A DNA stretch of 64,000 bases from Candidatus Poribacteria bacterium. GTDB lineage: Bacteria > Poribacteria > WGA-4E > PCPOR2b. Position 1 is the stretch's first letter, and each line of letters begins with the position of its first letter. The translations under genes were made by a program, and so were the position numbers. This document shows, piece by piece, positions 31,060-63,542 of the stretch. The notes below the pieces were generated by a model that saw only the letters and a program-made list of their open reading frames with translations, made no database searches and was not told where the DNA came from. The stretch lies in assembly GCA_965116925.1 (NCBI GenBank), contig OZ220744.1, positions 5,984,001 to 6,048,000 on the forward strand, given 5' to 3'.

Positions 31060-31143
31060 GGCTCATGTAAAAAGAAAGCATGAAGAGAAACCGAGTTTTT
31101 TCTTCAAAACTCGGTTTCTTTGCACTAAATCTTAACATGAGCA
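31060..31143. mobile_element. MITE of the GGCTCATG family with internal AGAAACCGAG...CTCGGTTTCT hairpin
   Basis: Ends GGCTCATGTAA / TTAACATGAGCA; hairpin at 31086-31119; similar flanks ATTGATGAA / ATTGATAGAA. Confidence 0.7.
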
Positions 31144-31993: not shown

Positions 31994-32027
31994 AGAAACC
32001 GAGTTTTTTCTTGAAAACTCGGTTTCT
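31994..32027. repeat. AGAAACCGAG-loop-CTCGGTTTCT palindrome (MITE core)
   Basis: The same hairpin occurs at 31086, 34525, 39751, 52402, 56012, 60607 and 63495. Confidence 0.9.
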
Positions 32028-32071: not shown

Positions 32072-33100
32072 ATGTATAAAGAAAATGGGCAAGAGATTTT
32101 TGTTGTTGACGGGCATATGCACTTTTGGGACGCCAACCCGGAAAACTGGCGCAATGAGTATGGCGAAGGTTGGATCCGCTGTTTCTACGATTTTCATACC
32201 GCCCTCAGCCCGGAAGAATATGTCTGGTCGTTTGAAAAGTATTGCAAATACGGTGAAGAGACGCTAGTTAACGATCTCTTTTCGGAGGGATACGTCGACG
32301 TTGCCATTCTCAACTCAACGTATCTGTACGAGTTTTATAAAAACGGATTTAATACCCACCAACAGAACAACGAGATCAAAGCGAAATATCCCGATCGTTT
32401 TATTCTCTGCGGTTCCTTCGATCCCAGAGCGGAGGAGGCCGGACTGGACGCGTTCCGGCAGATGGTAGAGGATTACCCGATTCAGGGACTCAAGCTCTAC
32501 ACCGCCGAATGGCGAAACGGCTCGAAAGGCTGGCGACTGAACGATCCGTGGGCTTACAAGTATTTTGAGCTCGCCGAGGAACTTGGGGTTAAAAATATCC
32601 ACGTTCACAAGGGACCGACGGTTTATCCTCTGAATCGTGACGCTTTTGATGTTGCTGATGTGGATTATGCCGCCACTGACTTTCCCAATCTCAACTTTAT
32701 CATTGAACATATTGGACTGCCACGGTTAGACGATTTCTGCTGGATCGCCACGCAGGAAAAGAACGTCTATGCCGGCATGTCGGTGGCAATGGCGTTCATC
32801 CACTCACGCCCGAAATATTTCGCCGAGATCGTTGCTAACCTGCTGTTTTGGTTAGGCGAGGATAAGATGATCTTTGGCAGCGACTATGCGATCTGGACGC
32901 CCAAGTGGTTGATTGAGAAGTTTATGGCACTTGAGTTGCCGGACGATATCAAAGAGGAATATGGGGTTGATCTTACACCAGAAGCCAAGCGCAAGGTCTT
33001 GGGTGAAAATGTCGCCGGTCTGTATGGGATTGACCTCTCCGCCCATCGCGAGAAACTGAGCCAAGATGAGATTGGCCTCAAACTTGCCGAGGGCGCATAA
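32072..33100 (+). CDS. Amidohydrolase-2 family metallo-hydrolase
   Basis: DGHMH, HVHKG, EHIGLP and FGSDY motifs. Confidence 0.9.
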   Translation: MYKENGQEIFVVDGHMHFWDANPENWRNEYGEGWIRCFYDFHTALSPEEYVWSFEKYCKYGEETLVNDLFSEGYVDVAILNSTYLYEFYKNGFNTHQQNNEIKAKYPDRFILCGSFDPRAEEAGLDAFRQMVEDYPIQGLKLYTAEWRNGSKGWRLNDPWAYKYFELAEELGVKNIHVHKGPTVYPLNRDAFDVADVDYAATDFPNLNFIIEHIGLPRLDDFCWIATQEKNVYAGMSVAMAFIHSRPKYFAEIVANLLFWLGEDKMIFGSDYAIWTPKWLIEKFMALELPDDIKEEYGVDLTPEAKRKVLGENVAGLYGIDLSAHREKLSQDEIGLKLAEGA

Positions 33101-33160
33101 AACAACACTGGAACTTGGAACCGTGCTATACCAACCCGATCATTACTGTGAGGGCTGCTC

Positions 33161-34270
33161 ATGATCGCTGCACATACTGATGTCGTTGGCAGCTTGCTCC
33201 GCCCATCTGAACTTCTCAGAGCGAGAAGTGAGGTTGCGACAGGCAAAATGACGCAAGCGGCGTTCAAAGCGATCGAAGATCAAGCGGTTGACGAAGCGGT
33301 TGCACTTCAGGAGGCGGTGGGCTTGGAGGTTGTGACCGATGGCGAGATGCGGCGGTTATCCTTCCAGAGCCAAATGACAGAAGCGGTCAGTGGTTTTGGA
33401 GAATATGATCTCGATGCGTTCCTCTGGGGTGATTGGCATGGTGACGAAGGTACGGGGAGTTTGAGCCTAGAACGCCCCAAAAGCTTGGGCGTTGTCGGCA
33501 AACTCACCCGCAAACGGCACCTCTCAACAGAGGAATTTATCTACCTGCGAGCGCGGACGAATCGTATACCGAAGATCACGTTGCCGAGTCCAAGCCTGTG
33601 GACAAACTTCTGGTCGCCAGAATACTCCACCCCCGCCTATCCCACGCTCGACAGTTTTCTTGCGGAGGTCGTTGACATTATGCGGGACGAGGTCGCTGAG
33701 TTAGTCCGGCTAGGTGCAACCTACATTCAACTTGATGCTCCCCATTATCCGTTGTTGCTCGATCCCAAAACGAGAACCTTCTACGAGGGACAAGGTTGGC
33801 GGCTTGATCAGTGGTTAGACCGGGGTATTGAGATGGATAACGCTGTGATTGGTGATTTTCCGGAGGTGACGTTCGGCTTTCATCTCTGACGCGGCAATCA
33901 GGGCAGCCGGTGGTTGGTCGAAGGGGGATACGATCTGATTGCCAAACCGATTTTTCGTGGCATCCGTGCCCAGCGTCTACTACTCGAGTACGACGATGAA
34001 CGCTCCGGTTCGTTTGAACCGTTGCAGGCGATTCCCGATGACAAGGTCGCTGTTTTAGGGTTGGTCACGACGAAAACGCCGCGCCGAGAAACGCCGGAAG
34101 TACTCACTGCGCGTATCAAGGAAGCCAGCCAATTTGTGCCGCTAGAACGGCTTGCCTTGAGCCCGCAGTGTGGTTTTGCTACTTCGGTCCTTGGCAATCG
34201 CATTACGGCAGAAGATCAGAGACGTAAATTGTCGGTGGTTGTTGAGACTGCTAGAACGGTGTGGGACTAA
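33161..34270 (+). CDS. Cobalamin-independent methionine synthase II (MetE C-terminal-like) family protein; candidate selenoprotein (Sec243)
   Basis: ORFs 33161-33889 and 33914-34270 share one frame. Read through TGA 33887-33889 the protein is 369 aa with VVGSLLRP, TDGEMRR, IQLDAP, FHL-U-RGN (family H-x-C-R-G-N), LEYD and SPQCGF. Confidence 0.85.
33890..33953 (+). promoter_or_regulatory. SECIS-like hairpin after the in-frame UGA of the MetE-like gene
   Basis: CAGCC-GGT-GGTTG stem-loop with a G-containing loop about 20 nt after UGA, enclosed by GGCAATCAG...CTGATTGCC. Confidence 0.6.
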
Positions 34271-34298
34271 ACTGAAAAATTTTTGAAGGAGGAGCGAC

Positions 34299-34505
34299 AT
34301 GGCACAAACGCCTAAAAACCATCAAACCCGAACCGAATCTATTGGCAAATGGACGGTTCGGATTAGATCTTACCAGCTCGGTGATGCGTATATCTGCACT
34401 GTGGACAATGTAAGCCCCGGTGCTGTCATCGCCCGGTCTACGGCTGCAACCCGTGCTGATGCGGAATCCGAGGCGTTGGAACAGGCGAAAGCCGCGATGG
34501 CATAA
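34299..34505 (+). CDS. Small hypothetical protein in the selenium cluster
   Basis: AAGGAGGAG RBS, ATG start, 68 aa containing YICTVDNVSPGAVIAR. Confidence 0.75.
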   Translation: MAQTPKNHQTRTESIGKWTVRIRSYQLGDAYICTVDNVSPGAVIARSTAATRADAESEALEQAKAAMA

Positions 34506-34597
34506 TTGTGTTATACGAGATTAAAGAAACCGAGTTTTTTCTTGAAAACTCGGTTTCTGATGTATTTGTAGAAGATACGAAAGTTGGGAGCGATAGA

Positions 34598-35659
34598 ATG
34601 AACCTGAATAAATTATCACGAAAACATACCCTCACAAGTCTGGCAAAAACATGTGGGTGAGCGGCGAAAGTCAGTCCAGTTGGACTGGGAGAACTGCTCG
34701 CCAAATTGCCGAAGAAAAACGACCCCAATCTGCTCGTTGGATTTGAAACTAGCGACGACGCGGGCATCTACCGTCTCAACGATGAGATGGCTTTAGTTAC
34801 GACCGCTGATTTCATCACGCCGCCGGTGGATGACCCGTATCTGTTCGGTCAAATTGCTGCCGCCAATTCAATCAGCGATATTTATGCGATGGGCGGAAAA
34901 CCTGTGACCTGTCTGAATTTGGTGGGTTTTCCAGCGGATAAATTGGATCCAGAAATCCTGCACGGAATTGTCGAAGGTGCGCTGAGTAAAATCACTGAAT
35001 CTGGCGCAGTCTTGGCGGGTGGCCATACGACCGATGATGAGGAACCGAAATTTGGGCTGTCGGTCACTGGAATTGTGCATCCGGACAACTATTGGCGGAA
35101 CGTCGGTGCAGAGCCGGGAGATGTCCTGATCTTGACAAAACCGATCGGCAGTGGCGTGATTTTTAACGCCAACCTGAAAAATTGGGTGTCAGACCAAGCG
35201 TTAGACGAATGTATAGGGGCTATCACGACGCTCAATAAGGGGGCGGCGGCGGTTATGGCTGGGTTTGACATCCATGCGGTGACGGACATCACCGGATTCG
35301 GATTGGGAGGTCATGCCTTGGAAATGGCAGAAGGGTCGGACGTGACTTTGGAGATTCGCACCGACGACGTGCCGATTATGCGTGAAGCACTGGAGATGTA
35401 TCAGAAAGGGATGCGGACCGGTGTCAACGCCGCCAATCGAGCGTTGATTGAAGAGTCCACACGTTTTGAAAAATCACTTCCTGCATGGCATGAGGAGATC
35501 TTTGTTGATCCGCAGACCAGCGGTGGACTGTTGATGTCTGTGCCAGCTGCTCAAAGCGAGTCACTGTTGGCGGCTTTACACAATGGTGGTGTGACAGAGG
35601 CACAGATTATCGGAGTTGTGAAGTCTTTTGTCAAACCGAACTATCTTGTTTTTGTATAA
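34598..35659 (+). CDS. selD: Selenophosphate synthetase, Sec-containing form
   Basis: From ATG 34598: MNLNKLSRKHTLTSLAKTCG-U(TGA 34658)-AAKVSP, in frame with the 34706 ORF; DDAGIY, DFITP, ANSISDIYAMGG, TDITGFG and DPQTSGGLL motifs. Confidence 0.95.
34671..34688 (+). promoter_or_regulatory. SECIS-like hairpin after the selD UGA
   Basis: TCAGTCC-AGTT-GGACTGG; loop 18-21 nt after UGA. Confidence 0.7.
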
Positions 35660-35662
35660 ACC

Positions 35663-36613
35663 ATGAAAATTTGCTTAATTACCCCTGCCCCAACATACTC
35701 CCGAAAAGGTAATCGTGTGACTGCCCTTCGGTGGGCCCGCATCTTACGAGAACTGGGACACCGTGTCGTTATTGCAGAGGAGTATCAGGGAGAGCGATGC
35801 GACGTGCTGGTCGCACTCCATGCCCGGCGCAGCCACGCCTCCATTGTGCATTTCCGCCATAAACACCCAGAGCTGCCCCTTATTCTTGCCTTGACTGGAA
35901 CAGATCTCTACGGCGATATCCATACGGATGCATCAGCCCAAGAATCTCTGGAGATGGCGGATCGCTTCATTCTATTACAGCCCGCAGGCATCGAAGAACT
36001 TTCAGAACGTCTGCGCCACAAAGCGTGGGTAATCTACCAATCGATAACAGCACCGCCGGGGCAATTTGTTCCAAAGAAGAGCGTTTTCGAGTTGTGTGTG
36101 TTGGGGCATCTGCGTCCTGTGAAGGACCCATTTCGTACTGCGATGGCTTCCCGACAACTGCCTCCATCATCCCGAATTCAGGTGGTACATGTTGGGGGGG
36201 CACTCACCGACGACATGAGAGTACAGGCAGACGCTGAAGTCGCCGCCAATCCACGTTACCGCTGGTTGGGAGAACTCCCGCGCTGGCGGGCGCTCCGTGT
36301 TCTCGCACGCAGTCGGGTTCTTGTGCTGACCTCGCAGATGGAGGGAGGGGCAAATGCAGTTTGCGAAGCGATTGCGTGTTCTGTCCCCGTCATCTCATCG
36401 CGGATATCTGGCTCGATCGGTCTTTTAGGGAGGGATTATCCGGGATACTTTCCGGTGGGAGATACACAGGCGTTGACGGACCTACTCACGCGCCTTGAGA
36501 TGGACACCGCATTTTATGATACACTCAAAGCGTGGTGTGAAGGATTAAAGCCGATTGTTGATCCTGACCGTGAACGTCAGAGCTGGAAACGTCTGCTACA
36601 GGATTTGCAATAG
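35663..36613 (+). CDS. senB: SenB-type (TIGR04348-like) selenosugar synthase glycosyltransferase
   Basis: GNRVTALRW, ALHARRS, LTGTDLY, GHLRPVKDPF, EGGAN and GLLGRDYPGYF motifs; 3 nt downstream of selD. Confidence 0.85.
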   Translation: MKICLITPAPTYSRKGNRVTALRWARILRELGHRVVIAEEYQGERCDVLVALHARRSHASIVHFRHKHPELPLILALTGTDLYGDIHTDASAQESLEMADRFILLQPAGIEELSERLRHKAWVIYQSITAPPGQFVPKKSVFELCVLGHLRPVKDPFRTAMASRQLPPSSRIQVVHVGGALTDDMRVQADAEVAANPRYRWLGELPRWRALRVLARSRVLVLTSQMEGGANAVCEAIACSVPVISSRISGSIGLLGRDYPGYFPVGDTQALTDLLTRLEMDTAFYDTLKAWCEGLKPIVDPDRERQSWKRLLQDLQ

Positions 36614-52307: not shown

Positions 52308-52486
52308 AACGTGAAAACTATTTGGTTCATTAGTTCATTGATGAAGTTGGGTTGGGAAATCCAACCTACAGAGACGAAAAAAGACAGGGCAGAATGTAAA
52401 GAGAAACCGAGTTTTTTCTTGAAAACTCGGTTTCTGTTGCACGATTTCTTAACATAAGCCAAAGGGAATAGTCTCAGGAGAATGGA

Positions 52487-60517: not shown

Positions 60518-60672
60518 AACTTATGCAGCACGTTCATAAGTCCCCCTGATAAGGGGGATTTAGGGGGTTAAAAATCAAGGTTCATATAAAAAGAGAGCGC
60601 GAAGCTAAACCGAGTTTTTTCTTCAAAACTCGGTTTCTGTTACACGACTGAAGTACGTGGATCCTATCCAGA

Positions 60673-63402: not shown

Positions 63403-63542
63403 CCAAAATTTTCTATACATCTACTCGGAGATATGGTAACATGACTCATGCGGGATTGAACGTAGAAAATTAGCGAGTATAGACATGGAGATAGAGAAAC
63501 CGAGTTTTTTTGGCAAAACTCGGTTTCTGTGCCTTGTTCGTA

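Follow-up and report, generated by a model that had tools for sequence, protein, structure and literature searches.

The window analysed here, a 64,000-nt stretch of contig OZ220744.1 (positions 5,984,001 to 6,048,000) from a 6.47-Mb Candidatus Poribacteria genome, contains a row of genes in the order zinc alcohol dehydrogenase, DUF59-like gene, Amidohydro_2-family gene, MetE-like gene, 68-residue open reading frame (ORF), selD, senB and gpsA. The MetE-like gene, which is our subject, occupies 33161-34270 on the forward strand and, when TGA is translated as selenocysteine (Sec, U), forms a single frame of 369 sense codons followed by TAA, with the TGA at 33887-33889 as the sole internal stop. 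This TGA stands in the context CAT CTC TGA CGC GGC AAT, corresponding to H241-L242-U243-R244-G245-N246 in the motif F-H-L-U-R-G-N. Mechanical ORF calling divides the gene into two ORFs of the same frame, 33161-33889 (242 residues) and 33914-34270 (118 residues, with a TTG start). The initial annotation had read these two pieces as one frame broken only by the TGA, and the sequence, the ORFs and the translation bear out both the frame and its coordinates.

Contigs assembled from public sequencing runs cover the gene in four runs from four studies, two of which are RNA libraries, and an RNA-library contig of 3358 nt spans 33161-34554. The comparison takes in assembled contigs only, with no view of transcript ends, expression level or rare variants, and bins of run X9 that lack cover were left out of the interpretation. 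Among the differences listed for the contigs of the four runs none lies at 33887-33889, so that the TGC or TGT for which the initial annotation had suggested looking, as a sign of assembly error, is not seen in these contigs (as distinct from raw reads).

The predicted protein matches PF01717 over residues 6-343 (E 5.9e-16, 59.1 bits against a cut-off of 21). Its closest solved structure is PDB 1YPX (phmmer E 1.8e-50, residues 5-368), which places H-I-C-R-G-N opposite H-L-U-R-G-N. The TIGR01371 model for full-length MetE gives 39.4 bits against a cut-off of 929.95, and the protein has 369 residues compared with about 750 in full-length MetE. When a 21-sequence profile of the family was aligned with E. 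coli K-12 MetE by hhalign (probability 97.75%), the match covered E. coli residues 427-731 only. The zinc ligands of E. coli MetE are H641, C643, E665 and C726, and its homocysteine binders are S433, E484 and D599 (PMC7857596). In the hhalign alignment H241, U243 and C337 fall opposite the zinc ligands H641, C643 and C726, while S11, E62 and D192 fall opposite the three homocysteine binders S433, E484 and D599 and are invariant in 125/125, 126/126 and 131/131 loci, respectively. The zinc motif recognized in the initial annotation therefore stands as far as H241, U243 and C337 and the presence of LLLEYDD and SPQCGF are concerned, whereas its Glu, E276, is not placed opposite E665 in the alignment. 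By homology, the protein would bind zinc and alkylate a thiol.

We compared the codon at position 243 across homologs. A protein search returns thousands of full-length homologs, the top ones 72-79% identical, and our genome set comprises 80 homologous loci from species-representative genomes, the nearest relatives being Candidatus Poribacteria metagenome-assembled genomes (MAGs). The Cys counts and the tree described below take in L057, L076, L086 and L088, from genomes flagged as unpublished. The aligned codon is TGA in 24 of the 80 loci and TGC or TGT in the remaining 56; the tally of TGA against Cys codons called for in the initial annotation thus reveals an alternation. The loci with TGA are the full set of 16 from Poribacteria, with protein identities of 83-91%, and eight from outside the phylum, namely L034 (Acidobacteria), L036, L039, L045 and L081 (Chloroflexota lineages), L072 (Nitrospinota), L079 (unclassified) and L090 (Methylomirabilota).

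Metagenome contigs were also scanned with a degenerate pattern holding the TGA, which gave at least 118 stretches, of which 80 were fetched. Among the fetched loci 54, a lower bound for the metagenomes, encode a MetE-like protein of 59-81% identity with TGA at position 243, and 53 of the 54 lack any other stop in the alignment. The other 26 fetched loci, with stop-filled frames and no MetE similarity, are chance matches and were excluded from the counts. Pooled over genomes and metagenomes, position 243 is TGA in 78 and Cys in 56 of 134 loci, the window coming in addition. In a maximum-likelihood tree built from 81 sequences (quick search, LG+G4), the Poribacteria group as a single clade, and the TGA/Cys state requires seven changes, at least four of these changes being forced by well-supported branches. 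A mosaic distribution of Sec and Cys is typical of selenoprotein families.

Purifying selection acts both before and after the TGA. Over the 136 pairs formed by 17 Poribacteria genes, the ratio of nonsynonymous to synonymous substitution rates (dN/dS) has a median of 0.101 in codons 1-242 and of 0.096 in codons 244-368, in line with the initial view that both halves are intact. Conservation in the genome and metagenome loci extends to codons 244-251, which lie between the TGA and the TTG. Apart from 243 and 337, no position of the MetE-like protein is of the Cys type.

The genome encodes the machinery for Sec insertion that the initial annotation had marked for checking. A tRNA-Sec gene adjoins selB (373 bits) and selA (607 bits), and selD, present in one copy genome-wide, lies inside the window. 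Its start at 34598 is 327 bp past the MetE-like gene, confirming the Sec-type selD initially placed about 330 bp downstream, and its own in-frame TGA would specify U21 within TCG-U-AAKV. TGA also serves as an ordinary stop in this genome, ending 5 of 19 family-supported window genes and, over the whole genome, 484 of 1611 long open frames. Across the homologs, selA scores above its cut-off in 24/24 genomes with the TGA form compared with 37/55 genomes with the Cys form (Fisher p 0.0008, with relatedness ignored and the MAGs incomplete).

A hairpin resembling a Sec insertion sequence (SECIS) element follows the UGA. It has the form GGCAGCC-GGU-GGUUGGU and begins 12 nt past the UGA; with the U of the UGA taken as nt 1, its loop occupies nt 23-25. 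The overall range for the start of the hairpin is 12-15 nt downstream. The stem is encoded by the conserved residues Ser249-Arg250-Trp251-Leu252, and the middle base of the loop is the third base of the Arg250 codon. This codon is CGG in 22 and CGT in 3 of the 25 TGA loci from genomes (window included), and CGG in 46, CGT in 7 and AGG in 1 of the 54 TGA loci from metagenomes. In the 56 Cys loci from genomes it is CGC in 40, CGG in 9, CGT in 5, CGA in 1 and AGG in 1. The loop accordingly contains GU in 79/79 TGA forms (25/25 and 54/54) but in only 15/56 Cys forms (naive Fisher p 2e-22), and the loop base is the sole feature of the hairpin that discriminates between the two forms.

A hairpin also occupies the site of the SECIS-like element in the Cys forms of Actinomycetota Gaiellaceae (loci L055-L096). 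It is a stronger, 8-bp structure, GGCGAGCC-GCU-GGCUCGUC, at nt 15-35 past the Cys codon, and its outer pairs differ on both sides from those of the TGA forms. It could be a fossil SECIS, an effect of codon bias or an element with another role.

We propose, with a probability of roughly 0.85, that the gene at 33161-34270 is intact and that its UGA is decoded as Sec at a zinc-ligand position of a short MetE-like enzyme. The selenocysteine reading of the initial annotation is supported by the presence of selA, selB and selC, the alternation of TGA with Cys codons, the low dN/dS and the placement of U243 on the zinc-ligand Cys643 by hhalign. Under this proposal the UGA would be decoded by SelA, SelB, tRNA-Sec and SelD, aided by the in-ORF hairpin with its loop G-U about 23 nt past the UGA. 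The product would be a 369-residue single-domain MetE-like TIM-barrel enzyme in which Sec replaces the first zinc-ligand cysteine (that of H-x-C), with the metal held by His241, Sec243, probably Glu276, and Cys337. Judging from residue conservation, its most likely substrate would be homocysteine or a closely related amino acid with a thiol or selenol group, which zinc would activate for methylation. Since the folate domain is missing, methyl-tetrahydrofolate-triglutamate would not be the methyl donor.

Several observations weigh against this proposal, most of them concerning the hairpin. At -0.50, the z-score for the folding energy of the 64 nt that follow the UGA is unremarkable, and fold energy was dropped as SECIS evidence. 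The stem is also found in Cys homologs, often in a stronger form, because the conserved S-R-W-L residues encode it; it is therefore not independent evidence, and conservation or covariation of the stem was rejected as proof of a SECIS. Counted phylogenetically, the loop rule rests on four independent pairs, of which about 3.3 agree with it and none contradicts it (sign test p about 0.25). An Rfam scan of 33100-35800 yielded no matching family, returning two chance-level matches to eukaryotic families only. The G-loop hairpin that the initial annotation had placed about 20 nt downstream is real in its arms and loop, the stem being shared with Cys homologs and the loop base alone telling the two forms apart. 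We consider it plausible that the hairpin is a SECIS whose stem pre-existed in the family, easing repeated Cys-to-Sec change.

The remaining counterpoints concern the metal site, the codon and the need for the enzyme. In a gapped stretch of the alignment hhalign set E. coli Glu665 opposite R269 rather than E276, so the third zinc ligand is assigned to E276 by motif and invariance alone. Assembled contigs lack the power to prove identity at one base. Finally, the genome holds three other, stop-free short PF01717 paralogs (at 1917778, 4508419 and 5823304) as well as split MetH-like modules (Table 1), and a role of the MetE-like gene in bulk methionine synthesis is therefore not required.

This last point touches the alternative that survives best, which concerns the function of the enzyme: rather than being an ordinary methionine synthase, it would be dedicated to selenium small-molecule or hercynine-linked metabolism. 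It might recycle homocysteine for the three S-adenosylmethionine-dependent methylations of EgtD, or it might add a methyl group to, or remove one from, a selenol such as selenohomocysteine, methylselenol-type compounds or selenoneine. The idea draws on the gene neighbourhood. In the Poribacteria selD lies downstream in 16/16 loci and senB within the 3-kb flanks in 14/16, and the window senB is well above its model's cut-off (Table 1). The genome further contains senA (NF041186, 498.2 bits, cut-off 420) at G000:C1:879453-880703 followed by egtD (364.5 bits; L100:2938-3945), at 0.88 Mb and thus 5 Mb from the selD-senB pair of the window. By these family matches, a full selenoneine gene set is present in this Poribacteria genome of the sponge-symbiont type. 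Since its only selD, itself a selenoprotein gene, is the one in the window, the synthesis of Sec and that of selenosugar must both draw on it. In L090 the TGA form sits between egtD (374.8 bits) and senA (528.6 bits), and egtD is the commonest immediate upstream neighbour of the TGA form, on the same strand and with gaps of 12-72 nt, though in 5 of 63 TGA loci. Against this, senB occurs in 1/8 non-Poribacteria genomes with the TGA form and in 4/55 genomes with the Cys form (the MAGs being incomplete), neither selD nor senB lies within 3 kb of the gene in any of the eight TGA genome loci from outside the Poribacteria, and neighbours elsewhere are varied. In the window itself a repeat hairpin parts the gene from selD-senB, and the conserved homocysteine-binding residues suit a free amino acid better than a betaine. 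The association of the MetE-like gene with selenoneine genes is thus not general, and we regard a dedicated selenium role as possible but doubtful.

The sen cluster described for selenoneine consists of three genes, senA-senB-senC (Kayrouz et al., preprint 10.1101/2022.04.13.486033), and the main text of that preprint does not mention a methionine-synthase-like neighbour. Here selD-senB lies beside the MetE-like gene, and in another lineage the order is egtD, MetE-like gene, senA. Its recurring position by selenoneine genes makes the MetE-like gene a lead to a missing step of the selenoneine pathway or to the pathway's methyl economy.

A second alternative accepts translation past the UGA but not Sec: a near-cognate tRNA for Trp, Cys or Arg could read the codon, or a 242-residue N-terminal part could act together with a separately started 118-residue C-terminal part. 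A TTG at 33914 does open the second ORF, and selection downstream of the UGA proves translation, not the identity of the inserted residue. Set against these points are the presence of the metal-ligand Cys in 56/56 non-TGA homologs, which is the classic Sec/Cys pattern, the occurrence of selA in every TGA genome compared with two thirds of the Cys genomes, and a loop base that shifts along with the TGA. A split protein would moreover lose one ligand of the H-x-C motif, and the codons between the TGA and the TTG, 244-251, are conserved. We judge this alternative to be very improbable.

Even less credible is a pseudogene, in which a recent nonsense mutation at the Cys codon would have left the two ORFs as remnants. 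TGA is one base away from TGC and TGT, and automatic gene calls do split the gene, but the TGA is kept in 16/16 Poribacteria loci, eight loci of other lineages and at least 54 metagenome loci, further stops are missing, dN/dS past the TGA is 0.096 over 136 pairs and Cys337 is invariant in 131/131 covering loci. The case in which close homologs never share the TGA and the copy has decayed, named at the outset as one that would overturn the selenoprotein reading, is contradicted by the 24/80 genome loci with TGA. Least probable of all is a sequencing or assembly error hiding TGC or TGT, given that independent assemblies of 24 species genomes and at least 54 metagenome contigs carry the TGA and that the contigs of four runs cover the bin with no difference listed at the codon. 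Because downstream dN/dS is low and Cys337 is invariant, pseudogene and error are both excluded in practice.

Returning to the proposed selenoprotein, we compared it with known proteins at several distances. The nearest are PDB 1YPX, annotated as a 'putative vitamin-B12 independent methionine synthase family protein', and the 'methionine synthase II' models PRK06520 and PRK06233, the top NCBIfam matches, which score 237.6 bits (cut-off 313) and 224.3 bits (cut-off 576). These are of the same length class and likewise consist of a single catalytic domain, but carry Cys at the Sec position. Because the PRK06520 and PRK06233 scores are under their cut-offs, the MetE-like selenoprotein would form a separate subfamily. 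To our knowledge, the substrates of 1YPX, PRK06520 and PRK06233 proteins have not been established. E. coli MetE has counterparts here for its zinc and homocysteine residues except the Glu; relative to it, the window protein lacks the N-terminal folate-binding half, has Sec for C643 and carries an insertion between H-x-C and the Glu.

MesA-MesD (Price et al. 2021, PMC7857596) have been described as short MetE-like enzymes without the folate domain, in which the zinc and homocysteine residues are conserved and the methyl group comes from other donors. Shortness, the missing folate domain, the conserved homocysteine residues and, the Glu and the Sec position apart, the zinc residues are common to them and the MetE-like selenoprotein. 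Similarity to the MesD structure 3RPD is weak (E 2.7e-6, 29.8 bits), and MesD is not a close relative. No DUF1852 (MesX) match was found among 22 window ORFs (19478-49195) in a Pfam scan, no genome-wide search for MesX having been made. No mention of the 1YPX/YxjG type was found in PMC7857596, which does not describe any of MesA-MesD as a selenoprotein.

The prototype of bacterial selenoproteins, E. coli formate dehydrogenase H, has an in-ORF SECIS and Cys homologs. Like such proteins, the window protein has a UGA at a functional Cys position, a downstream in-ORF hairpin, selA, selB, selC and selD in the genome and a mosaic Sec/Cys pattern on the tree. Unlike them, its Sec would ligate a Lewis-acid zinc rather than serve a redox centre, and its stem pre-exists in Cys homologs.

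Most known Sec residues sit at redox sites or act as ligands of Mo, W or Ni. If the proposal is true, selenium would here be put to a different kind of use, as a Sec ligand to the Lewis-acid zinc of an enzyme that alkylates thiols, and the natural Sec/Cys pair would allow study of how a ligand tunes zinc-thiolate reactivity or oxidation resistance. Automatic annotation splits or truncates the gene in many genomes, and inventories of the methionine cycle and the selenoproteome in MAGs from sponge symbionts, soil and the sea therefore miss it. The family is apparently widespread and uncatalogued. It is not among the selenoproteins named in the main texts of a May 2026 review of the prokaryotic selenoproteome, which puts the families identified so far at more than 110, of the deep-Sep paper and of a 2022 review, and full-text literature searches found no paper naming it as a selenoprotein. 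The initial remark that this is not a canonical selenoprotein family holds against both the NCBIfam matches and the texts of the reviews. Bolder, and in our estimate rather unlikely, a shade more so than the dedicated selenium role discussed above, is the view that no earlier natural enzyme family is known in which a selenolate binds the catalytic zinc, and that the Sec form arose repeatedly in bacteria that use Sec because it serves selenium small-molecule metabolism. A selenol (selenohomocysteine or an intermediate of the selenoneine pathway) might then receive or give up the methyl group, or the enzyme might recycle homocysteine in step with EgtD in selenoneine-making symbionts.

Table 1 Coordinates of the MetE-like gene, its neighbours and related genes. 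Plain numbers are window positions; those preceded by G000:C1 are genome positions.
Feature	Coordinates	Strand	Remarks
MetE-like gene, predicted selenoprotein	33161..34270	+	short single-domain form without the folate-binding N-terminal domain
In-frame UGA, residue 243, putatively read as Sec	33887..33889	+	aligns with E. coli MetE zinc-ligand Cys643
His241 codon (H of H-x-U)	33881..33883	+	aligns with E. coli MetE His641; invariant in 134/134 loci
Glu276 codon (LLLEYDD), candidate third zinc ligand	33986..33988	+	invariant in 134/134 loci
Cys337 codon (SPQCGF)	34169..34171	+	aligns with E. coli MetE Cys726; invariant in 131/131 covering loci
SECIS-like hairpin	33902..33918	+	arms 33902-33908 / 33912-33918; 5-bp core 33904-33908 / 33912-33916; loop GGU 33909-33911
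Amidohydro_2-family gene directly upstream	32072..33100	+	PF04909 E 4.5e-41; in 14/16 Poribacteria loci
68-residue ORF, no known family	34299..34505	+	in 16/16 Poribacteria loci, 75-99% identity
selD (selenophosphate synthetase)	34598..35659	+	predicted Sec at residue 21 (TGA 34658-34660); TIGR00476 375 bits
senB, selenosugar synthase of selenoneine biosynthesis	35663..36613	+	TIGR04348 402.6 bits, cut-off 300
Palindromic repeat upstream of the Amidohydro_2 gene	31996..32025		REP- (repetitive extragenic palindromic) or terminator-like hairpin
Palindromic repeat between the 68-residue ORF and selD	34527..34556		likely end of transcription unit
Further palindromic repeat copies in the window	31088-31117, 52404-52433, 60607-60636, 63497-63526		
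MetH modules on separate ORFs	G000:C1:4018247-4019071, 4268978-4272293, 4280729-4281439, 3113619-3114416		homocysteine-binding, pterin-binding, B12-binding and activation modules
Further selenoprotein-type genes	G000:C1:4745417-4746238, 1526723-1527106, 996583-996975, 4720852-4721232		one in-frame TGA
Further selenoprotein-type genes	G000:C1:2097953-2098342, 2540626-2541894, 3628452-3628664		one in-frame TGA

Within 3-kb flanks of the 16 Poribacteria loci, selD is found in 16, and senB and the Amidohydro_2 gene in 14 each. The sole PDB match of the Amidohydro_2 protein is the uncharacterised protein 3IRS (E 6.7e-06). The 68-residue ORF has no Pfam or NCBIfam match, and its Atlas neighbours are unnamed. 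It lies directly upstream of selD in all 16 loci, and in four of them (L022, L025, L030 and L032) an additional stretch of about 1.1-1.8 kb lies between it and the MetE-like gene, indicating that it travels with selD.

The palindromic repeat is a 30-nt element with 12-nt arms and a T-rich loop that sits intergenically just past genes; six copies occur in the window, where none is expected by chance, and 153 genome-wide. It resembles a REP or terminator element of this lineage. Contigs from the public runs stack on the repeat at depths in the thousands (bin 34521-34605). Given the repeats that flank the Amidohydro_2 gene on its upstream side and the 68-residue ORF on its downstream side, and with no repeat hairpin between the Amidohydro_2 gene and the MetE-like gene, the Amidohydro_2 gene, the MetE-like gene and the 68-residue ORF likely form one transcription unit, while selD-senB opens another.

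No gene is a universal neighbour among the 80 genome loci or among 63 TGA loci. Neighbours elsewhere include MttB, URO-D family, threonine-aldolase-like, Na/H exchanger, TenA-like and TauE genes. In some lineages the TGA form adjoins an MttB-family methyltransferase gene (L045:1409-2965, and in L152; 703 bits to PF06253) or a URO-D/MtaA-like gene (L036:1578-2774), an arrangement which suggests that quaternary amines may supply the methyl group by a corrinoid-dependent route.

The genome also appears to hold a large selenoproteome. One in-frame TGA is present in 6 of 18 AhpC/TSA matches, in 1 of 3 molybdopterin-oxidoreductase matches and in the single Rdx match, which makes at least eight further selenoprotein-type genes: six of the AhpC/TSA family, one FdhA-like molybdoenzyme and one Rdx/SelW-like gene. 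Two of the peroxiredoxin genes with a TGA stand in tandem. Hairpins occur at a similar distance in the other selenoprotein-type genes, with the loops AGUU in selD and one peroxiredoxin gene, GGUCU in the FdhA-like gene and GUU in the Rdx gene and one peroxiredoxin gene; two kinds of peroxiredoxin hairpin loop are without GU. An FGE-sulfatase/EgtB-like match at G000:C1:4780627-4781043 (reverse strand) has a TGA three codons ahead of another stop (..GFR-TGA-VRN-stop), and this TGA is either a true stop or a C-terminal Sec codon.

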